Shown piece by piece: positions 7,405 to 56,975 of a stretch of 64,000 nt of DNA. The notes under the pieces are model-generated. The model was not told where the DNA came from. It was given only the letters and a program-made list of their open reading frames with translations, and ran no database searches. Numbering within the stretch: position 1 is the stretch's first letter; each line of letters starts with the position of its first letter. The position numbers and the translations under genes are program-made. The stretch is from Eledone cirrhosa (lineage: Eukaryota). The stretch is taken from positions 45,632,001 through 45,696,000 of the forward strand of contig OZ024741.1 of NCBI GenBank assembly GCA_964016885.1, read 5' to 3'.

Positions 7405-8310
7405 CTACCCATACAGGAAACCAACGCAAACCTGCACTACATCCACCGCCACCCTAACCACCCTAGAAACATCACCAATAACCTGGTTTAAAACATCTCC
7501 CTCCACATATCTCGTTTCTCCGCTAATGAACAGATATTCGACGAACATGCGCCTCATTACAACTAGGCCCTCAAGCGGGGTGGCTCCCGGGAGGAAATAT
7601 CCTTTTATCCAGCTTCCCTTAGCGGAACCAGCAGGCGACACCGTCGCTCACGCAACGTAACGTGGTTCAATCCTCTCCATAATGCCGAGGTGGGAACACC
7701 TATCAAGAAAATCTTCTTTAGGCTCCTCGAAAAGCACTTCCCCCTACAACACCGCTACCACAACATAATCAACAAAAACACCATCAAACTCTCCTACAGT
7801 ACCACACCTAACTTCGCACAAAACATCGTCTCCTCAAACAACAAAAAACTCAACCCCTATGGAAGAAACAGCCTAGACATCAGTGGAAAGCCGCGTGGAG
7901 GTGTAACTGCCCTGATAGATCTACGTGCCCCCCTCAACAACAAATGCCGAGAACGTAACGTGATCTACCAGTGCAACGTGAGGACGGACACCTCCAACAA
8001 AGCTTATATAGGATTAACCGCGTGTGAGTTCAAGACCCTGCACTACCAACACCGACATACTTTCCGAAACTCGGTCCAGCGACATGCCACTACACTTTCG
8101 GGCCATATCTGGGACCTCAAAGATAATAATATAACCTACAATCTCACTTGGAGCTTACTGTCCAGAGCTAACTCTTACACGGGAGGACGCCGTCCGTGTA
8201 ACTTATGCTCGGAGGAAACATTACAAATGCTGTTTTCGAAGGAATAACACGTAAACAAGAAAGACGAAGTGGTACCCGCATGCAAACACTGATTACGTAG
8301 GACTTACCTC
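7405..8310 (+). pseudogene. Frameshifted PLE RT-thumb + GIY-YIG remnant
   Basis: ORF 7690-8247 reads HRYHNIINKNTIKLSYSTT...PLNNKC...NVIYQCNV...AYIGLT...F..LHYQH...CNLCSEE and is collinear with the C-terminus of the intact 737-aa ORF. Confidence 0.88.
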
Positions 8311-9598: not shown

Positions 9599-9685
9599 CA
9601 TTTTCACCTGATGAGATCAGTGATAATTGATCATGGCTTTACGATCGATCTATCTCTTATTGAAACGTGTGTCGTGATTAAAATG
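9599..9685 (+). ncRNA. Degenerate hammerhead-like motif
   Basis: TCAC-CTGATGA-GATCAG...-GAAA-CGTGTG-TC-GTGA. Stem I and both core strands are present, but stem II does not close cleanly. Confidence 0.45.
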
Positions 9686-22073: not shown

Positions 22074-22112
22074 TCTGTTATGTCCTGAGCAATATATATA
22101 TATATATATATA

Positions 22113-22227
<115 letters not shown>

Positions 22228-22307
22228 TATATTTTTTTTATAAATAAATAAATATATATAAGTATATATATGTATATATATATATATATTTTTTTTTTTA
22301 TAAATAA

Positions 22308-22348
<41 letters not shown>

Positions 22349-22589
22349 TAAATATATATATATATATATATACTTATATATGTATAAGCATGTATGTATA
22401 CGTACATACATACATGTATACAGACGTACAGTAGCATGCATATATATATATATATACATATATACATACAGGTAAACACACATATATGTACGTATCAGTT
22501 TAGCGGACGCTTATTATATCGCCCGCTTTGTTCGTTTGTAAACAAACTGAACAGCCTGAATTTATGCCGTACGGTGTTAAGGCAACCAC

Positions 22590-22652
<63 letters not shown>

Positions 22653-22679
22653 TACATACAGTGTGTGTACCTGTATGTA

Positions 22680-22757
<78 letters not shown>

Positions 22758-22989
22758 TGCTACTGTACGTCTGTATATATGTATGTATGTACGTATACAT
22801 ACATGCTTACATTTAAGTAAGTGCCGTACTAAGAGTGAGAAATGAGATTTCGTTTTCATTTTATTACAACTTAACGTTTTCGGTGCGCCTGACCGAACTC
22901 ACTCGATATGCAAATCAGGCTGCTCGGCCGTTAATTTTCATGGGGAGAGTATATACTTTCGAACGTTCAACCATCTGGCAGAGGGGTAT

Positions 22990-23032
22990 ACGGTGCTGAT
23001 GATAGCTGACAAGCTTGAAACTAGTACATCGT
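22990..23032 (+). ncRNA. Minimal type I hammerhead ribozyme, array copy 1 (intact)
   Basis: ACGGTG-CTGATGA-T-AGCT(GACA)AGCT-T-GAAA-CTAG-TA-CATCGT: 6-bp stem I, palindromic CUAG, predicted cleavage after A23026. Confidence 0.88.
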
Positions 23033-23189
23033 TCCTGTGTCAGTGTTGAACAAAAAGGTGACGTGGTTGCCTTAACACCGTACGGCATAAATTCAGGCTG
23101 TTCAGTTTGTTTACAAACGAACAAAGCGGGCGTTATAATAAGCGTCCGCTAAACTGATACGTACATATATGTGTGTGTACCTGTATGTA

Positions 23190-23229
<40 letters not shown>

Positions 23230-23461
23230 TGCTACCGTACGTCTGTATACATGTATGTATGTACGTATACATACATGCTTACATTTAAGTAAGTGCCGTA
23301 CTAAGAGTGAGAAATGAGATTTCGTTTTCATTTTATTACAACTTAACGTTTTCGGTACGCCCGGTCGAACTCACTCGATATGCAAATCAGGCTGCTCGGC
23401 CGTTAATTTTCATGGGGAGAGTATATACTTTCGAACGTTCAACCATCTGGCAGAGTGTTAT

Positions 23462-23504
23462 ACGGTGCTGATGATAGCTGACAAGCTTGAAACTAGTTAT
23501 TCGT
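23462..23504 (+). ncRNA. Hammerhead motif, array copy 2 (stem I disrupted)
   Basis: Core intact, but the 3' side reads CTAG-TT-ATTCGT, so the two core-proximal stem I pairs are mismatched. Confidence 0.7.
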
Positions 23505-23661
23505 TCCTCTGTCAGTGTTGAACAAAAAGGTGACGTGGTTGCCTTAACACTGTACAGCATAAATTCAGGCTGTTCAGTTTGTTTACAAACGAACAAAGCG
23601 GGCGTTATAATAAGCGTCCGCTAAACTGATACGTACATATATGTGTGTGTACCTGTATGTA

Positions 23662-23741
<80 letters not shown>

Positions 23742-23973
23742 TGCTACTGTACGTCTGTATACATGTATGTATGTACGTATACATACATGCTTACATTTAA
23801 GTAAGTGCCGTACTAAGAGTGAGAAATGAGATTTCGTTTTCATTTTATTACAACTTAACGTTTTCGGTACGCCTGGCCGAACTCACTCGATATGCAAATC
23901 AGGCTGCTCGGCCGTTAATTTTCATGGGGAGAGTATATACTTTCGAACGTTCAACCATCTGGCAGAGGGGTAT

Positions 23974-24016
23974 ACGGTGCTGATGATAGCTGACAAGCTT
24001 GAAACTAGTTATTCGT
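23974..24016 (+). ncRNA. Hammerhead motif, array copy 3 (stem I disrupted)
   Basis: Same GTTATTCG variant as copy 2. Confidence 0.7.
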
Positions 24017-24173
24017 TCCTCTGTCAGTGTTGAACAAAAAGGTGACGTGGTTGCCTTAACACCGTACGGCATAAATTCAGGCTGTTCAGTTTGTTTACAA
24101 ACGAACAAAGCGGGCGTTATAATAAGCGTCCGCTAAACTGATACGTACATATATGTGTGTGTACCTGTATGTA

Positions 24174-24257
<84 letters not shown>

Positions 24258-24489
24258 TGCTACTGTACGTCTGTATACATGAATGTATGTACGTATACAT
24301 ACATTCTTACATTTAAGTAAGTGCCATACTAAGAGTGAGAAATGAGATTTCGTTTTCATTTTATTACAACTTAACGTTTTCGGTACGCCTGGCCGAACTC
24401 ACTCGATATGCAAATCAGGCTGCTCGGCCATTAATTTTCATGGGGAGAGTATATACTTTCGAACGTTCAACCATCTGGCAGAGGGGTAT

Positions 24490-24532
24490 ACGGTGCTGAT
24501 GATAGCTGACAAGCTTGAAACTAGTACATCGT
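24490..24532 (+). ncRNA. Minimal type I hammerhead ribozyme, array copy 4 (intact)
   Basis: Identical to copy 1. Confidence 0.88.
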
Positions 24533-24686
24533 TCCTGTGTCAGTGTTGAACAAAAAGGTGACGTGGTTGCCATAACACCGTACGGAATAAATTCAGGCTG
24601 TTCAGTTTGTTTACAAACGAACAAAGCGGGCGTTATAATAAGCGTCCGCTAAACTGATACGTACATATATGTGTGTGTACTTGTAC

Positions 24687-24739
<53 letters not shown>

Positions 24740-24971
24740 TGCTACTGTACGTCTGTATACATGTATGTATGTACGTATACATACATGCTTACTTTTAAGT
24801 AAGTGCCGTCCTAAGAGTGAGAAATGAGATTTCGTTTTAATTTTATTACAACTTAACGTTTTCGGTACGCCTGGCCGATCTCACTCGATATGCAAATCAG
24901 GCTGCTCGGCCGTTAATTTTCATGGGGAGAGTATATACTTTCGAACGTTCAACCATCTGGCAGAGGGGTAT

Positions 24972-25014
24972 ACGGTGCTGATGATAGCGGACAAGCTTGA
25001 AACTAGTACATCGT
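24972..25014 (+). ncRNA. Minimal type I hammerhead ribozyme, array copy 5 (intact core and stem I)
   Basis: As copy 1, except a T>G change shortens stem II by one pair. Confidence 0.82.
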
Positions 25015-25171
25015 TCCTGTGTCAGTGTTGAACAAAAAGGTGAAGTGGTTGCCTTAACACCGTACGGCATAAATTCAGGCTGTTCAGTTTGTTTACAAAC
25101 GAACAAAGCGGGCGTTATAATAAGCGTCCGCTAAACTGATACGTACATATATGTGTGTGTACCTGTATGTA

Positions 25172-25209
<38 letters not shown>

Positions 25210-25441
25210 TGCTACTGTACGTCTGTATACATGTATGTATGTACGTATACATACATGCTTACATTTAAGTAAGTGCCGTACTAAGAGTGAGAAATGAGAT
25301 TTCGTTTTCATTTTATTACAACTTAACGTTTTCGGTACGCCTGGTCGAACTCACTCGATATGCAAATCAGGCTGCTCGGCCGTTAATTTTCATGGGGAGA
25401 GTATATACTTTCGAACGTTCAACCATCTGGCAGAGTGTTAT

Positions 25442-25484
25442 ACGGTGCTGATGATAGCTGACAAGCTTGAAACTAGTTATTCGT
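25442..25484 (+). ncRNA. Hammerhead motif, array copy 6 (stem I disrupted)
   Basis: GTTATTCG variant. Confidence 0.7.
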
Positions 25485-25641
25485 TCCTCTGTCAGTGTTG
25501 AACAAAAAGGTGACGTGGTTGCCTTAACACCGTACGGCATAAATTCAGGCTGTTCAGTTTGTTTACAAACGAACAAAGCGGGCGTTATAATAAGCGTCCG
25601 CTAAACTGATACGTACATATATGTGTGTGTACCTGTATGTA

Positions 25642-25713
<72 letters not shown>

Positions 25714-25945
25714 TGCTACTGTACGTCTGTATACATGTATGTATGTACGTATACATACATGCTTACATTTAAGTAAGTGCCGTACTAAGAGTGAGAAATG
25801 AGATTTCGTTTTCATTTTATTACAACTTAACGTTTTCGGTACGCCTGGCCGAACTCATTCGATATGCAAATCAGGCTGCTCGGCCGTTAATTTTCATGGG
25901 GAGAGTATATACTTTCGAACGTTCAACCATCTGGCAGAGGGGTAT

Positions 25946-25988
25946 ACGGTGCTGATGATAGCTGACAAGCTTGAAACTAGTTATTCGT
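25946..25988 (+). ncRNA. Hammerhead motif, array copy 7 (stem I disrupted)
   Basis: GTTATTCG variant. Confidence 0.7.
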
Positions 25989-26145
25989 TCCTCTGTCAGT
26001 GTTGAACAAAAAGGTGACGTGGTTGCCTTAACACCGTACGGCATAAATTCAGGCTGTTCAGTTTGTTTACAAGCGAACAAAGCAGGCGTTATAATAAGCG
26101 TCCGCTAAACTGATACGTACATATATGTGTGTGTACTTGTATGTA

Positions 26146-26191
<46 letters not shown>

Positions 26192-26423
26192 TGCTACTGT
26201 ACGTCTGTATACATGAATGTATGTACGTATACATACATTCTTACATTTAAGTAAGTGCCGTACTAAGAGTGAGAAATGAGATTTCGTTTTCATTTTATTA
26301 CAACTTAACGTTTTCGGTACGCCTGGCCGAACTCATTCGATATGCAAATCAGGCTGCTCGGCCGTTAATTTTCATGGGGAGAGTATATACTTTCGAACGT
26401 TCAACCATCTGGCAGAGGGGTAT

Positions 26424-26466
26424 CCGGTCCTGATGATGGCGGACAAGCTTGAAACTAGTACATAGT
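26424..26466 (+). ncRNA. Hammerhead motif, array copy 8 (degenerate)
   Basis: CCGGTC-CTGATGA-TGGCGGACAAGCTT-GAAA-CTAG-TA-CATAGT, with several stem I mismatches. Confidence 0.6.
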
Positions 26467-26617
26467 TCCTGTGTCAGTGTTGAACAAAAAGGTGACGTGG
26501 TTGCCTTAACACCGTACGGCATAAATTCAGGCTGTTCAGTTTGTCTACAAACGAACAAAGCGGGCGTTATAATAAGCGTCCGCTAAACTGATACGTACAT
26601 ATATGTGTGTGTACCTG

Positions 26618-26657
<40 letters not shown>

Positions 26658-26771
26658 TGCTACTGTACGTCTGTATACATGTCTGTATGTACGTATACAT
26701 ACATGCTTACATTTAAGTAAGTGCCGTACTAAGAGTGAGAAATGAGATTTCGTTTTCATTTTATTACAACT

Positions 26772-26803
<32 letters not shown>

Positions 26804-26805
26804 CT

Positions 26806-26900
<95 letters not shown>

Positions 26901-26931
26901 TTATATATATATACATATATATATATATACT

Positions 26932-26969
<38 letters not shown>

Positions 26970-27023
26970 CTTATATATATATATATATATATACTTATAT
27001 ATATATATACATATATATATCTA

Positions 27024-27115
<92 letters not shown>

Positions 27116-27139
27116 TATATACTTTTATATATATATAGT

Positions 27140-27944
<805 letters not shown>

Positions 27945-35922: not shown

Positions 35923-35987
<65 letters not shown>

Positions 35988-36025
35988 ATTAAATAAATGG
36001 AAAACTATATTTATAAAACCATATT

Positions 36026-36091
36026 TATTTCATTATATATATTTCGGGGATATCATATTAACAATATGCTATGCCTTCATCAGACAAAATA
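36026..36091 (-). ncRNA. Hammerhead ribozyme in inverted pLTR
   Basis: Reverse complement of 40480-40545. Confidence 0.75.
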
Positions 36092-36579
36092 CAATATAAA
36101 CAGTTTTATAGATAAATAGATTCGACATACCGTTATAACACCGACTTCATTTGAAGAGGTTTAAGCTGGCAGTGAAAAAAAGAGAGAGAGAAAAAAAGAG
36201 AGAGAGAAAAAAAAAGAAGGAAAGACAGAAAACGAAGAAAAGGAAGAAAAAGAAGAGAAAGAGGAAATGCATGGAACAAAATAGAGAGATGGAAAGATAG
36301 ATAAAGCGAAGAACTTCATGTAAAGAAACAAAAGATATATATATATAGAGAGAGAGAGGAAATAGAGATAGATACATATATATATATAGAAAATTAGGTA
36401 GTGGGAGGTCATTTTGAGTAAATGTATCAATGATACATTTATTTATTTATTTATTTATTTAGCTCAAGTATTAATGTAAGGGAGATATATAGAGAGAGAA
36501 AAAAGCTTAAACCTCTTCAAATGAAGTCGGTGTTATAACGGTATGTCGAATCTATTTATCTATAAAACTGTTTATATTG

Positions 36580-36645
36580 TATTTTGTCTGATGAAGGCAT
36601 AGCATATTGTTAATATGATATCCCCGAAATATTTATAATGAAATA
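36580..36645 (+). ncRNA. Hammerhead ribozyme in 5' pLTR
   Basis: TATTTTGT-CTGATGA-AGG...CATATT(GTT)AATATG...CCC-GAAA-TATTTA-TA-ATGAAATA. One change at 36633 breaks the stem-loop III palindrome. Confidence 0.72.
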
Positions 36646-36825
36646 AATATGGTTTTATAAATATAATTTTCCATTTATTTAATATTGTAAATATACTCCA
36701 AATATTTGTAGAGTGCTTTTATATCAGTTATAAATATTTACTAGTTGTAACCCAACAATTTTAAATATAACTTTCCATGTATCTTGCTCCAATACTGTTG
36801 AGCGCTTTATATTATAACTGGAAAA

Positions 36826-39039
36826 ATGGAATTCTTTAAGATTACTTCCTCTCTAAAAGACATACCTCTACCTAGAAACAAAGACTTTATAAAACAATTA
36901 ATAGATAAATCTGACTCTTTTATAAGGAGAATCAGGTGGCGTGCATTCCACTTTGATAAATCTAATGCAGACGAAAATGTCTCGGACTTAAACAAAGTTT
37001 TCAAATCTAAAAGAAATCCACCCCCTAACAAACTTTTATCTGACTTTGAAAACGATATAATTTCTATCATACAAGGGGTCAAATTCAAGAGAAACTTTAA
37101 AGGCCAGGAATATCTGAAAGGCATTAAGGATAACATTGAGAGCTTAGAGAAAACTGAGAAGATCTTGGTGAAATCTGACAAGACCAACAACCTCTATGGA
37201 GTGCGGAAAGACATGTATAATGGCCTCATACTGAAAGAGCTGAGGAAAAAGTACAAGGTAGCAGATAAGGCCGAACTTGAGAAAATGAATGTCGAAGCAT
37301 CTTGTATAATGCACGAGTTGGAAATTGAGAACAGAACACAACCTTTCGTGCCCAGGAAACCGAAGATCAATATGAAGGACCACAAGAGGAATTTTGAAAA
37401 TGACCTGCCAGTTAGATTGATCGCACCTTCAAAATCGGACCTGGGCAAATTAAGCAAAAACATTCTTGACAGGGTGATACAGCAAATTAAGAACTTGGAT
37501 TGTGTATCTAACCTGAGCTTGTGGAAGGGAACTGGAGAGGTGGTTGAGTGGTTTAGGCAAATTAAATATAACAATAATAATAGGTTTATTCAACTTGATA
37601 TAGCTAACTATTATTCTTCTATTACCCCTAGTCTACTAAATAAGGCACTAAATTACGCATTCAAACATACTGACCTAACTAGCAAAGAAATGCATATTAT
37701 ATTATCGGCTAGGAAAACTTTGATAGAATTTAATGACAAATTATGGACCAGAGCAGATAGAGATAGCAATTTTGACATAACTATGGGATCTTCCGACTCA
37801 GCTCAGGTAACTGACCTTGTGGGCTTATTTTTAATCAATTCGCTACATAGGAAAATACCTGGTACTACCGGAGGTTTATATAGGGATGACATGCTTTTAC
37901 TTATTAATAATAATAACCCTGAACTAAATAGAAAATGTAAACAAATTACAAAATTTTTTAATTACTTTAACCTTAAAATAGAAATTGAGAACAACCATAG
38001 AATAGTCAATTTCCTAGATATAACATTAAATCTCAACACATGTCTCCACTATCCTTTTCACAAGTTGAATGAAAACTTAAACTATGTCAACTTTAACTCT
38101 AACCACCCCAGATCTGTCAAAAACACTATAGTAAACTCAGTTCAAAAACGTATCTCTAGGATCTCGTCGAATAGAAAGATTTTCGACGAAAAGGCCCAAT
38201 ACTATAATGAAGCACTAGCTAGGGCAGGATATGCTGATAAGATTGTGTACATAGATAATGATAGACAAACTAAACAAAGTAACAACTTTTTTAATTACGG
38301 CAACAACATTAACAACTATAATAGAAAGCATTACAATAATTCCAAAGGACAAAAAAGAAATAGAACTAGGAACATAATTTGGTTTGCCCCCCCTTTCTCA
38401 CTAAACATTAAAACCCACATCGCTAAATTATTTTTCAAAGCTCTTGATAATCGCTTCCCTAGAACACATAGGTATCACTCAATTTTTAATAGGCATACAA
38501 TTAAATTAACCTACTCATCCACCAAAAATTTAGCACAAAATATTAATAGAATAAATAATAGGAACTTAAAACCTACTGATAATAGCATAAATAATATACA
38601 AGTTAACAAATGTAACTGTAGAGATAGATCTAAATGTCCGTTAAATAACAACTGCTTAGTTAAAAATATAGTATACAATTGTAATGTTAGTACTGACTCT
38701 AATTCTTTTAACTACGTCGGTTCCACATCGACGGAATTTAAACTTCGCTATAATAACCACAAGAATTCTTTCACAGATCCAAGTAAAAAATCTTCAACGG
38801 CACTATCAGGCGTACTCTGGCAACTTAAGCTAGATAACGTTAGATATTCGACGGCTTGGAATATAGTCTCAAGAGGGATTCCTTTTAATTCATCCTCTGA
38901 GACATGTGACCTCTGCGCAGAGGAGATATTCTTTATACTAAAATCTAAAAATTCCCTTAACCTACGGACAAATTTATTCAGTTGTTGCAAACATAGATTA
39001 AACTCAACGTTTAAATATAAATTTAAATTTAAAATGTAG
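36826..39039 (+). CDS. PLE reverse transcriptase with C-terminal GIY-YIG endonuclease, 737 aa, uninterrupted
   Basis: KSDKT (DKG-like motif), RT motifs QLDIANYYSSI, ITMGSSDSAQVTDL, GLYRDD, NFLDITL, linker WFAPPF and CNC-x5-CPL-x3-C, EN IVY...YVG...FKLRYNNHK...CDLCAEE. Confidence 0.95.
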   Translation: MEFFKITSSLKDIPLPRNKDFIKQLIDKSDSFIRRIRWRAFHFDKSNADENVSDLNKVFKSKRNPPPNKLLSDFENDIISIIQGVKFKRNFKGQEYLKGIKDNIESLEKTEKILVKSDKTNNLYGVRKDMYNGLILKELRKKYKVADKAELEKMNVEASCIMHELEIENRTQPFVPRKPKINMKDHKRNFENDLPVRLIAPSKSDLGKLSKNILDRVIQQIKNLDCVSNLSLWKGTGEVVEWFRQIKYNNNNRFIQLDIANYYSSITPSLLNKALNYAFKHTDLTSKEMHIILSARKTLIEFNDKLWTRADRDSNFDITMGSSDSAQVTDLVGLFLINSLHRKIPGTTGGLYRDDMLLLINNNNPELNRKCKQITKFFNYFNLKIEIENNHRIVNFLDITLNLNTCLHYPFHKLNENLNYVNFNSNHPRSVKNTIVNSVQKRISRISSNRKIFDEKAQYYNEALARAGYADKIVYIDNDRQTKQSNNFFNYGNNINNYNRKHYNNSKGQKRNRTRNIIWFAPPFSLNIKTHIAKLFFKALDNRFPRTHRYHSIFNRHTIKLTYSSTKNLAQNINRINNRNLKPTDNSINNIQVNKCNCRDRSKCPLNNNCLVKNIVYNCNVSTDSNSFNYVGSTSTEFKLRYNNHKNSFTDPSKKSSTALSGVLWQLKLDNVRYSTAWNIVSRGIPFNSSSETCDLCAEEIFFILKSKNSLNLRTNLFSCCKHRLNSTFKYKFKFKM

Positions 39040-40479
39040 TATATTTAGTTTGATTTATATTTATATGGGAAACTAGCCGATAAATTTTTGATTCCTAAAT
39101 CTTTGATTCCTTCTTTTTACTCTTTATATTGTTTATTTTTATTTTATTTTTATCTAAACATTCCTCATGAAAAATTAAGCTACCCTAAAAGCTGATGCTC
39201 CAAATTTTTTGAATAAACCTTACACTAGATAAACTTCTATATTAAATATAAGAACATATGTAGACCTAATTGGACATCATAATCTTTTTGAAATGATCTT
39301 TGCTAGATGTGATTTGATAGATAATTTTTGGCTTTGTCTTGTAATGAACTTGGCAATATATTGTCAATTAACTTTGAAGGGTTGATCTTTGTGGTTTATT
39401 TTTATTTTTATTTTTATTTTTATTTTTTATTATTGTAGTATTCTATAATATTTTTTATTTTTTATTTTATTTTTAATTATTTTTAATATCTTTAATATGT
39501 AAATTTTTAATACGTAATATTTTTTAATACGTAATATTTTTAATATGTAATATTTTTATTATGTAATATTCTTTCGTAATATTTTTTAGTTTTCTATTCT
39601 ATATTTTTACTTATTATTATTATTGTTATCTTTTTATTTTTAGTTTTGTTTATGATATATATTTTTATTAGTATATTGAAACCTGCTCTCTAGTTCTGCT
39701 TGATAGATAATCTTTTAGAGTAATGACAGGAATAATAATACACATATATGTATGCTCAAATTTTTATACCACATTGAGAATGTTTTCCGTGAACTTAGAG
39801 TTTGCAGAGTGAATCAGTTGGATTCGCATGGATGTTTGTAGCTGTCACATAAACATATGAAATTTTTAAAACTAAACATAAGATAATTAATTTTCACACA
39901 TTATGGATACTTGTCTCATTCAGGAATACTGATATTTACAATATAGTGTAAGTTTTATAAATACTAATACATTAAAACATAGGGTTTTTACGCCTCGAAT
40001 ATATCTGGCTATTTTTAAATTTTTTTCTCTCGCTATTTTTTTCCTCTCTCTATATTTTTTCTCTATATATATATCACCCTTACATTAATACTTGAGCTAA
40101 ATAAATAAATAGATAAATAAATGTATCATTGATACATTTACTCAAAATGACCTCCCACTACCTAATTTTCTATATATATATGTATCTATCTCTATTTCCT
40201 CTCTCTCTATATATATATATCTCTTTTGTTTCTTTACATGAAGTTCTTCGCTTTATCTATCTTTCCATCTCTCTATTTTGTTCCATGCATTTCCTCTTTC
40301 TCTTCTTTTTCTTCCTTTTCTTCGTTTTCTGTCTTTCTTTCTTTTTTTCTCTCTCTCTTTTTTTCTCTCTCTCTTTCTCTCTGTGTAAAATTTTTTCACT
40401 GCCAGCTTAAACCTCTTCAAATGAAGTCGGTGTTATAACGGTATGTCGAATCTATTTATCTATAAAACTGTTTATATTG

Positions 40480-40545
40480 TATTTTGTCTGATGAAGGCAT
40501 AGCATATTGTTAATATGATATCCCCGAAATATATATAATGAAATA
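40480..40545 (+). ncRNA. Hammerhead ribozyme in 3' pLTR
   Basis: As above with palindromic TATATA; 8-bp stem I with two G-U pairs. Confidence 0.77.
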
Positions 40546-40700
40546 AATATGGTTTTATAAATATAGTTTTCCATTTATTTAATATTGTAAATATACTCCA
40601 AATATTTGTCGAGTGCTTTTATATCAGTTATAAATATTTACTAGTTGTAACCCAACAATTTTAAATATAACTTTCCATGTATATATATATATATATATAT

Positions 40701-41846: not shown

Positions 41847-41865
41847 TATATATATATAGAGAGGG

Positions 41866-42340
41866 ACGGTTGTCCCCCTTGCTTCTGCTGGACACCACCA
41901 GAGGGCGTTAGCCCCCTGGTGTTTGCATAGCTACGGCTTCCTAAGACCGTATTTCTTCAGAAATACGAAATTTCTATACCTATTGTATAAAGCTATGCTT
42001 GAAGCGAAATCTTATTTCTTTTCTATTATAAGTTGAGCCAACTTATACAGCTTCATATGCAAATTAGATTAATTTACACAGACGAGAAAACTATATATTC
42101 TCGGCTGTTTTCAAGTCCAGAAGTCGCAAGCGGTGGGAGGGATCCTCCTGACGATGGCCAGTAAAGCCTGAAATGCAAAGACGGTTGCCCCCTTTGCTTC
42201 TGCTGGACACCACCAGAGGGCGATAGCCCCCAGGTGTTTGCATAGCTACGGCTTCCTAAAACCGTATTTCTTTAAAAATAAGAAATTTCTATACATATTG
42301 TATAAAGCTATGCTTGAAGTGAAATCTTATTTCTTTTATA
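41866..42340 (+). mobile_element. Non-coding unit with head-to-tail repeat (period 315 bp) and an HHR-like motif at ~42143-42207, between (TA)n tracts
   Basis: 41866-42025 recurs at 42181-42340. CTGACGA-T-GGC(CAGTAAA)GCC-T-GAAA-T-GCAAAG...CTTTGC-T-TC; stem I is poorly supported. Confidence 0.65.
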
Positions 42341-47574: not shown

Positions 47575-47663
47575 TCATTTCATCCTTACGGGGTCGATAA
47601 AATAAAGTACCAGTAATGCACTGGGTAATTGCTGGCCTTGTGCCAAAATTAGAAACAATTATT
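47575..47663 (+). mobile_element. 5'-truncated SINE (core + tail)
   Basis: tttcatccttacggggtcgataaaataaagtaccag...agaaacaattatt. Confidence 0.85.
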
Positions 47664-47673
47664 GGGGAGTTTG

Positions 47674-47775
47674 TTTAATTTCGATGGTCCCATATAGAGA
47701 CCGCATCAGATATTAAGCTGACATGACAAGAACGGATCTTACATTTCGATTTTAGCCAAAAGGCCGAGAAGCGAT
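47674..47775 (-). pseudogene. U2: 3'-truncated U2 snRNA retrocopy with 9-bp target site duplication
   Basis: The minus strand starts ATCGCTTCTCGGCCTTTTGGCTAA (U2 5' end), continues through TCAGCTTAATATCTGAT (stem IIa) and stem IIb, and stops before the Sm site. GGGAGTTTG lies at 47665-47673 and 47777-47785. Confidence 0.92.
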
Positions 47776-55859: not shown

Positions 55860-56975
55860 TTTGTGCAATTTGGGTGTGGTTGTCTTTTAGACTCCAGATA
55901 TAAGTGACGTCATATTCCTTCTTGGAGGGTAACGAAAAGAATGGGTATGCATGTAAATACGCTGCTTGAATCTATTGGCGGTTAACCCTATGTAGGCCCT
56001 ACGGGGCGTGGGTGTTTCAACCTTACATTTGTAGACAATGTTACTAGGGAGGCATTTCCCGGATAGGGGGCAATCAACCCGATTCCTACAATTACAGTTA
56101 GTACTAACTACAGGGTTGCACGTGTTCCTACGGCTAGGTAGTTTAGCTAAATTTGAAGCTATGATGTTATGTGAAAGGTTAAGAGTCGTAGAGTAAGAAA
56201 TGTTTATAGTATTTCTATTAACAATTTTACTATATTTATGTGTAGGGGGAAAATGCTTCGTAATAAGGCATAGAAACATCTTAGCTAATGGTGTGGCCAC
56301 CTCCATATTATATGGTGGGTTATACCATATAATGCGACGGGATCTATTTCTTCTAGGTCTATTCTCGTACTCTGTATATGCTACCTTATCGTCAAATCCA
56401 CTCCGAGCAAGAGCTTCAGTGTAATAAGTAGAATGGTCGTTGAAAATATGCTCGTTAGTAGATAGACGGGAAAGCCTCAACGAAACGTTTCTTATCAGGT
56501 TCTTGGTTATGCTGGCAGGATGGTTGGAATGCTTACTTATGTTATTAAGCGTATCATTCGGCTTTCTATACGGGTAATACAAGCCATTCGATAAATTGAG
56601 GGTAACGTCGAGGTAATTAACGACCGAGAGGTTGGCCTCAACCTGTATAGAGAGGTTGAAGCCTTTAAAGAAGGCTGCCAGTTCTTTTCTGAACCTGTCG
56701 CAAGCACGAGGGGCGCACTTAGTCATGGTCAAAAGACCATCATCACGGTACAAACCACCGCCCGCGTTGGGGAATTCGTCCTTGATAGAGAAAAGAAGGA
56801 AAAGGCCTATAAGATCAGTAACCTCCGCAGAATCGCTGGCGCCCATACTCACGTCGAATTGGGTACTATCGGTTTTTTAATCCAAATAGAGTCGTCGAAA
56901 TTAATCACCGACTTACGGGCATTGAGGATGACATCAACTTCAAAATTCTTAACCACTGTGAGTGTTTTAGCGAAC
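55860..56975 (-). pseudogene. Truncated PLE RT + GIY-YIG ORF
   Basis: ILNARKS...(frameshift) MGASDSAEVTDL, GGLYRDDGL, NYLDVTL, WYNPPY, CNCRNRVDCPLSGKC, IVYKC...AYIG. Confidence 0.92.

Follow-up and report, generated by a model that had tools for sequence, protein, structure and literature searches.

Retrozymes of metazoans without long terminal repeats (non-LTR retrozymes), as described in PMC7229834, are non-coding repeats in tandem, each some hundreds of base pairs long, with one type I hammerhead ribozyme per unit. Their GC content lies below 50%, they occur in thousands of copies, their predicted circles are highly self-paired, and Penelope-like elements (PLEs) are found in the same genomes. 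The vertebrate retrozymes of Li, Clavereau & Pollet (bioRxiv 10.64898/2026.07.22.740005) have units of 51-972 bp and are described as dependent on PLEs. In the available parts of both papers, the circle as template of a reverse transcriptase (RT) and the PLE as source of the enzyme are given as hypotheses only. Endonuclease-positive (EN+) PLEs such as Neptune, Poseidon and Naiad are described (bioRxiv 10.1101/2021.04.23.441226, PMC11167929) with partial tandems, 5' truncation, an inverted 5' copy, microsatellite targets, a tail on one end and two internal RT starts downstream of the hammerhead. Here we analyse a retrozyme-like array in a 64,000-nucleotide stretch of the Eledone cirrhosa genome (contig OZ024741.1, positions 45,632,001 to 45,696,000 of the forward strand; hereafter the window, whose own numbering is used throughout), in which eight tandem units span 22873-26772.

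On all the sequence features tested, the element is a metazoan non-LTR retrozyme: the tandem units are short and non-coding, the family carries a type I hammerhead, GC is below 50%, the copies are dispersed, and PLEs are present in the genome. An open reading frame (ORF) for RT and GIY-YIG between pseudo-LTRs (pLTRs), the hallmark of an autonomous EN+ PLE, is missing from the monomer. The units are inside the size range of Li et al. and somewhat longer than the 150-450 bp of PMC7229834. The (TA)n targets, two fixed 3' ends, inverted arms, TA hairpin, U6-like module and editing marks reported below are not among the features described in the available part of PMC7229834, whose circles were shown by Northern blot, whereas the window element is known from sequence alone. 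The array is probably one insertion of such a retrozyme, moved by the RT/GIY-YIG protein of a Neptune-type PLE that used an edited circular template.

The units measure 472, 512, 516, 482, 470, 504, 478 and 466 bp, with a GC content of 0.30-0.36 and an internal TA run of 29-75 nt, and the longest stop-to-stop frame of a dimer is 77 aa. The initial annotation, made from the letters of the window, had described eight non-coding monomers of 466-516 bp with a variable internal (TA)n, preceded by an inverted piece; the window sequence bears this out and shows (TA)n flanks as well. The parts of the locus are as follows, with "q" positions counted from 22873.

22092..22385, no strand: left TA-rich flank, the target microsatellite (window sequence)
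22386..22592, minus strand: inverted arm, unit positions about 189-411, ending at the "short" 3' end (sequence comparison)
22593..22654, minus strand: second small inverted fragment, a TA run and its flank, at the arm junction (read from the sequence)
22655..22872, plus strand: leading partial unit, 5'-truncated (window sequence)
22873..26772, plus strand: eight tandem units, starting at 22873, 23345, 23857, 24373, 24855, 25325, 25829 and 26307
23157..23287, plus strand: TA-cored, self-complementary long hairpin of unit 1, with the short 3' end at its foot
26716..26772, plus strand: 57-nt PLE-type "tail" from the short to the long 3' end, with a small hairpin and a T-rich stretch
26773..27137, no strand: right (TA)n flank, the target microsatellite (window sequence)

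The array belongs to a large dispersed family, as had been proposed. A 40-nt hammerhead that differs from the window's by one loop base occurs exactly 10,122 times in the 3.0 Gb genome, a 22-mer outside the ribozyme has 12,242 matches, i.e. at least 12,242 monomers, and the hammerhead of a second subfamily has 4,370 exact occurrences; reversed-sequence controls gave 0 matches. Among four sequencing runs, two contained the family and its subfamily variants, a third yielded 18 contig pieces, and the last had none. Insertion ends were surveyed at the 50 loci that hold the first 100 exact matches along contig C1. At least two hammerhead-bearing units are present at 31 of these 50 loci, and monomers diverge by 0.9% within an arm, 0.6% between arms and 4.5% between loci. 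On the sequence divergence within arms, the family is young.

The ends of these loci follow a pattern. Two classes account for 75 of the 83 3' ends: short ends at q404-419 (34) and long ends at q461-472 (41). Two arms are present at 31 loci, of which 25 pair one long with one short end, none pairs two alike and 6 are unclassifiable, so that the rule holds in 25 of 25 classifiable cases. TA-rich DNA follows 59 of the 75 classed ends, compared with 147 of 1240 background windows. Both kinds of end recur in the second subfamily, again separated by 57 nt. In young short arrays the 3' ends are fixed and the 5' ends ragged. In the window array the short end lies on the inverted arm and the long end at 26772. 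The ends lie 260-320 nt past the cut site, and therefore the template is not a cut linear monomer read from its end. Direct repeats of at least 14 nt other than TA were seen across the ends of none of the 50 loci, and TA targets hide target-site duplications.

A tail on one end only is described for PLEs by Craig et al. (bioRxiv 10.1101/2021.04.23.441226), and in the available part of Frangieh et al. (PMC11167929) it is ascribed to a pair of internal RT starts that lie downstream of the hammerhead. The one-ended tail, inverted 5' arm, 5' truncation and microsatellite target are thus shared with PLEs, and there is little doubt that the array and its family insert like a PLE, as a retrozyme moved by PLE machinery; the PLE-type insertion suspected in the initial annotation is supported by the two fixed 3' ends, inverted arms, one-sided tail and TA targets. 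Compared with EN+ PLEs as described in these sources, the element has no ORF, a canonical rather than min-type hammerhead, a tail of 57 rather than 30-40 nt, and arms that may both hold several units. An origin of the second arm by fold-back DNA synthesis disagrees with L047 and L051, where each arm holds sequence that the other lacks (loci are given as L numbers where needed); this misfit concerns those two loci, and the window array itself may still fit fold-back synthesis. At L049 the same 25 nt of target stand at both ends in opposite orientation, and inverted duplications of flanking DNA around TA runs, next to insertions, are seen in the flanks of L009, L046 and L073 as well as at the L049 ends. 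Copies of U6atac that lack a promoter follow directly after TA runs at L150, L151 and L158, as retro-copies into the same target.

The internal (TA)n had been taken as a target motif carried in every monomer. It is not left-over target, because the insertion ends lie 60-120 nt beyond it and the run forms the core of a hairpin. This long RNA hairpin has a TA/TG-rich counterpart in the second subfamily and in a sister family. The run varies through slippage and also serves as a landing site. Folded as a circle, the cut-to-cut monomer reaches -158.6 kcal/mol (z -7.1 against 60 shuffles), to which the TA hairpin contributes much.

The locus-fixed A>G changes of the family are concentrated in the same hairpin, as detailed below. 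All eight units share 11 differences from other loci, ten A>G and one T>C on the ribozyme strand; one of the ten A>G sites, 22983, is A/T-polymorphic at other loci.

22916..23318, plus strand: array-fixed A>G at 22926, 22942, 22943, 22947, 22983, 23008, 23173, 23253, 23277 and 23318 (first copy)
22916, plus strand: array-fixed T>C (first copy)

The inverted arm has G at all three array-fixed A>G sites that it covers, and a 27-mer with the 22942/22943/22947 haplotype has seven genome matches, all inside the window array. At L047, each arm has one occurrence of a 43-mer that contains three A>G and is absent elsewhere in the genome. Variants were counted across 99 loci, 18 of which had been selected because they resemble the window and 7 because of a single base in common. 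Scored positions had a majority of 85% or higher among 25 or more loci; duplicate records, columns close to gaps or to the ends of the alignment, and variants that more than 2 (or 4% of) other loci also carry were excluded. The A>G:T>C count is 24:6 for locus-fixed and 33:49 for monomer-private variants, and 17:5 versus 31:46 (p=0.003) in the 98 loci without the window. In these 98 loci the excess lies wholly in the TA hairpin, where locus-fixed variants stand at 12:1 and private ones at 5:19 (p=6e-5), while outside it they stand at 5:4 and 26:27. With the rarity cut-off set at 0, 1 or 4 other loci, the hairpin contrast has p=0.026, 9e-5 and 6e-5, respectively. Locus-fixed C>T in the hairpin number 0. 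The private variants of the hairpin (q285-415) lean toward T>C, from 31 T and 23 A scored. A 5' G precedes none of the 24 locus-fixed A>G sites, while 16 of 117 A have one; such a lack of 5' G at edited A is in line with the preference of ADAR.

These marks are shared across copies. All units and both arms share A>G at L052 (3/3), L067 (5/5), L090 (6/6) and the window (9/9 and 10/10), with two sites among these recurring at one other sampled locus, and variant sharing within an arm was seen by eye at 11 loci for A>G and 4 for T>C. Sharing within an arm calls for a circle, for local amplification or for a source that was already homogenised. Had the units of a linear multimer been edited independently, private A>G should be raised, which it is not; one edited monomer copied repeatedly is the simplest reading. 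This suggests that ADAR-edited monomers were copied repeatedly, probably as circles, and it is likely that repeated copying of a circular monomer lies behind most of the short arrays. The replicon copied from circular RNA that the initial annotation had inferred is in this way indirectly supported by the genome, as an RNA template used repeatedly and probably circular.

The strongest competing explanation keeps the element and its PLE helper but takes a linear read-through multimer, or slightly more than one unit, as template: shared variants would come from unequal crossover, slippage or a homogenised source array, and the hammerhead would only trim transcripts. The window itself provides some material for it. 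Its units differ at 3-20 of 425 sites, above typical arrays (mean 0.9%), and divergence is lowest at a lag of four units (6.8 versus 10.9-15). Units 2 and 6 differ at 4 sites and units 3 and 7 at 3, which makes units 2-3 and 6-7 duplicates; this lag-4 similarity and a hammerhead lesion common to 2/3 and 6/7 mean that part of the eight-unit length is a later local duplication. Local amplification is seen elsewhere as well: L206-L208 have 40 or more units with higher-order repeats, L095/L178 about 20 units, and L204 and L205 dimer repeats. A single dimer-circle lineage for L204 and L205 was ruled out, as their variants differ. Moreover, both arms may begin within a single unit of a linear RNA, which would give them common edits; local amplification is the process preferred by Li et al.; and uncut RNA is the main substrate in vitro in the available part of Frangieh et al. 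(PMC11167929). Against this, a linear template predicts the private A>G excess that the hairpin counts lack, multi-unit, two-armed loci share their A>G (L052, L067, L090, window), and the fixed 3' and ragged 5' ends of young short arrays fit RT products. We regard the linear template as unlikely. Expansion by local unequal crossover, which the initial annotation had named as a possible refutation, thus holds in part for the window locus and fails for the family as a whole.

Of the eight array ribozymes, five are damaged, and edits also strike the promoter-like module of the array. Because of these edits, and because the tested haplotype has no daughter in the assembly, the locus is by its sequence probably inactive, a dead end.

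A screen of 147 locus records, out of several thousand loci, with five PLE bait proteins gave matches in 41 records. In two chimeric junctions, monomers abut the same Neptune-like PLE family (91% identity over 750 bp) with no TA in between; this family has short and long ends of its own. At L059 a retrozyme short end is combined with a Neptune long end, and at L062/L240 a Neptune short end with a retrozyme long end, so the rule of one short and one long end is kept across both elements. The two chimeras may be single insertion events that used both RNAs, with nested insertion plus deletion as an alternative. The Neptune-like family is thus a candidate helper, and the clade name, which we infer from its Cys motif and the description of Craig et al., is putative. 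Li et al., as far as their available text goes, infer PLE origin from pLTR homology; the window family is linked to PLEs by insertion anatomy and chimeras, with no pLTR homology found.

A Neptune-like PLE also lies within the window, at 35984-40679, in TA and with short and long ends about 90 nt apart. Its RT/GIY-YIG frame, 736 aa long, is open (36829-39036); the pLTRs have hammerheads at 36588 and 40488, and a further one, at 36083, belongs to an inverted arm. Further PLE ORF fragments are at 227-757, 7567-8247 and 55887-56876, and hammerhead-like cores at 9608 (+), 35646 (-), 53870 (-) and 54379 (+) are probably PLE ends. Pfam gave nothing above cut-off on four PLE-like ORFs of the window, and an Atlas search of such ORFs returned GIY-YIG/RVT-like clusters, which are leads only.

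The same screen bears on a reading in which the monomer would be a coding PLE's pLTR, or a deletion derivative, the master copy having escaped sampling, and the arrays would be partial pLTR tandems. In its favour, the tail, the inversions and the targeting of (TA)n are features of PLEs; among 57 Xenopus retrozyme families, 24 have a match to known elements, and of the 22, 21 are PLEs (Li et al., available part); and the screen covered just those 147 records. Yet in none of the 147 records is the monomer positioned like a terminal repeat, ahead of the start of an ORF or behind its stop, and direct monomer-PLE junctions fall at varied mid-ORF points. The array hammerhead also lacks the bulged base and long helix II typical of PLE pLTRs in this genome, and no similarity was found between the monomer tail or ribozyme and the PLE ends of the window. 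This reading, which had been named in advance as fatal to the retrozyme interpretation, is improbable.

The hammerhead itself deserves closer description. CTGATGA cores stand at 22996, 23468, 23980, 24496, 24978, 25448, 25952 and 26430, and each unit has CUGAUGA...GAAA-CUAG-U with the palindromic ACUAGU as stem-loop III. A type I descriptor (core, stem II with a mismatch tolerated at its base, stem III, and stem I of at least 4 bp) matches units 1, 4 and 5 only, and none of 3000 dinucleotide-shuffled monomers. The 3' strand of stem I is broken beside the cut site in units 2, 3, 6 and 7, and unit 8 also fails the descriptor. No hammerhead was found on the reverse strand of the monomer by the descriptor.

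22990..23032, plus strand: intact type I hammerhead of unit 1 on an extended stem I (about 22966-23050), with the cut predicted after A23026
23462..23504, plus strand: hammerhead of unit 2, stem I broken, with the identical lesion in units 3, 6 and 7
24490..24532, plus strand: hammerhead of unit 4, intact (descriptor)
24972..25014, plus strand: hammerhead of unit 5, which passes the descriptor with stem II one pair shorter (descriptor)

The layout is a 6-bp helix I, a 4-bp helix II with U.U at its base, a 2-bp palindromic helix III and a long extended stem I. The min-type of PLE ends is defined in the available part of PMC4209133 by a bulged base and G10.1-C11.1, separately from the canonical metazoan type I layout; here pair 10.1-11.1 is U.U and there is no bulge, and by these definitions the hammerhead is canonical type I. 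The axolotl HHR_Amex2 is described with the same U.U at the base of helix II, and HHR_Amex1 with a very short palindromic helix III. The intact hammerheads of consecutive units 4 and 5 correspond to the rule by which Li et al. call a locus active. Of the earlier claims on this motif, the palindromic CUAG stem-loop III and the predicted cut after A23026 hold in the sequence, the type I hammerhead in every unit holds for the core and in three units for the whole motif, and the label "minimal" is to be replaced.

At family level the hammerhead is, from sequence comparison, real, because of the shuffle result and of compensatory changes: 5 of 16 named pairs are changed on both sides across 7 hand-picked variants, with 4 of the 5 double changes from one sister-family row and 3 further candidates left out, compared with 0 in 500 shuffles and 0-1 in slid registers. 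Changes in the ribozyme between subfamilies are confined to N7, loop II and one stem I pair (G.U, U.G or A-U). The idea that the hammerhead is a local accident, raised by the 15 genome matches of the window's exact variant, was ruled out by the family that differs at one loop base. A DNA-level satellite or foldback repeat, with the hammerhead and A>G bias incidental products of error-prone repair synthesis or G.U selection, would suit the Rfam and folding results given below and a WA-preferring polymerase would partly fit the 5' neighbours (T, C, A, never G), but this reading is scarcely credible given thousands of dispersed loci with fixed 3' and ragged 5' ends, the compensatory changes, private mutations free of a sense-strand A>G excess, and the lack of the locus-fixed C>T that G.U tolerance should also favour.

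Related repeats were seen alongside the family. A sister retrozyme family (L043:348-1007 on the minus strand; L028/L098:948-1603) has a period of 469-476 bp, the same stem III, covarying stems I and II, the same octamer and TATA module, and a tail hairpin. L049:5430-7601 holds a two-armed tandem hammerhead repeat of about 295 bp, in which stem III is palindromic and stem II has U.U at its base; no octamer was seen within 130 nt of it. A further family, at L062:4550-4780 and upstream in L153, has octamer and TATA, and stem II of its hammerhead is mismatched (A.A) at the base. Within the window, a hammerhead-like repeat adjoins the array at 27290-27447 (minus strand; partial duplicate near 27700-27847) with octamer and TATA upstream, and a partial tandem of another family at 41850-42335 (plus strand) has an octamer at 42057, a TATA and a degenerate hammerhead whose stem II begins with U.U at its base, and ends in TA.

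Each unit also carries a promoter-like module.

22908..22955, plus strand: octamer ATGCAAAT (22908-22915) and TATA box (from 22950), present in every unit

The TATA box starts 42 nt after the octamer and stands about 46 nt before the core. The spacing is 41-43 nt in two sister families, and the same pair is found in at least 2 sister hammerhead families among the fetched loci and in 2 window candidates. The U6 genes of this genome (L099-L101) have ATGC(A/T)AAT at -76 to -78 and TATA at -30, and U6atac (L149) has a variant octamer element at the U6-like place plus TATA. In sequence the module resembles these U6 promoters, which would make it a putative promoter with RNA polymerase (Pol) III as a possible enzyme. 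A Pol II small nuclear RNA (snRNA) promoter is disfavoured, since the U1 and U2 genes of this genome lack the octamer; a TCAG-like word stands about 26 nt before the TATA in both (by eye). In the U1 and U2 genes (L119-L148) the TATA stands near -31 and an AATTA element lies at a greater upstream distance than in U6, which, read by eye, is a spacing code like that of plants, and a U2-like copy with a divergent 3' half at 47602-47775 (minus strand) of the window is probably a pseudogene. Hammerhead repeats with an internal small-RNA promoter are described in newt satellite 2 (snRNA-type Pol II) and schistosome Sm-alpha (Pol III) (via PMC2220036, PMC6765202); as far as those accounts go, the window module differs in its octamer and TATA, which are like host U6/U6atac and unlike U1/U2, and in its shorter spacing.

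Altogether, this leads to the following proposed cycle. The octamer and TATA module of each unit would drive plus-strand transcription into the next unit; hammerheads, aided by pairing of the palindromic stem III between neighbours, would cut the multimer to monomers of about 470 nt, and a host ligase would close these to circles, as in known retrozymes. ADAR, the presumed source of the strand-biased A>G, would edit the long TA-cored hairpin and occasionally the whole monomer. The PLE protein would nick both strands of a genomic (TA)n, with chemistry as described in the available part of PMC11167929, and RT would begin at two fixed positions, one on each strand and 57 nt apart, which would yield the observed head-to-head arms with one short and one tailed end. 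RT would then circle the same monomer repeatedly, so that all units and both arms inherit the same edits. The window array would come from a heavily edited RNA, followed by local duplication and decay, with no daughter copy in the assembly. A fuller version of this account is tentative, and we would stop short of calling it probable: the ADAR edits would be barcodes of circular-monomer copying onto both target strands by a Neptune-type complex that holds both RNAs (one short and one tailed start), the circles would come from a U6-derived promoter common to several unrelated hammerhead families, and hyper-editing would sterilise copies.

Several observations weigh against this account, besides the local amplification already described (lag-4 similarity at the window; L204-L208). 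On the editing side, removing the rarity filter weakens the hairpin contrast to 12:9 versus 5:20 (p=0.014); the second subfamily (44 loci, excluding the long satellite L206-L208) gives 4:1 versus 22:22, in the same direction but not significant and with too few variants; many locus-fixed variants are two-of-two across arms, which is one RNA used twice and not a circle; and genome-wide uniqueness was tested for the window 27-mer and the L047 43-mer only. As for the helper, further direct junctions at L041 and L239 involve other PLE families, and no shared sequence was found between the monomer tail or ribozyme and the end of the candidate helper. In the promoter-like module the spacing is 4-6 nt shorter than the 46-48 nt between element and TATA in U6/U6atac, and T runs of at least 7 nt occur in 24 of the 44 tails scored. 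Such runs should stop Pol III. Rfam, at gathering score and at E<=10, gave no hammerhead, only TA-driven microRNA noise, so that the model match anticipated in the initial annotation comes from our own descriptor in units 1, 4 and 5 while Rfam stays silent; isolated 66-nt folds are not more stable than shuffles (z -0.08 to +1.67). In the available parts of the literature, cleavage was seen in only 1 of 9 predicted Xenopus retrozyme dimers (Li et al.), and PLE insertion in vitro proceeds without need of the hammerhead (PMC11167929).

A literature search found no paper that joins retrozymes with ADAR and brought up one general review on circRNA; related families may stand in the supplements of PMC7229834 and Li et al. 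On retrozymes with a Pol III promoter and rolling-circle copying it found nothing beyond one review, with thin coverage of subscription journals. What is new here is evidence on the template and the helper, which those two papers, in their available parts, leave as hypotheses. The thousands of young loci provide a test that needs only the genome, in which A>G marks, used as barcodes, tell rolling-circle copying apart from linear multimers and from local amplification. The chimeric insertions name a candidate helper family whose protein can be assayed on the monomer.

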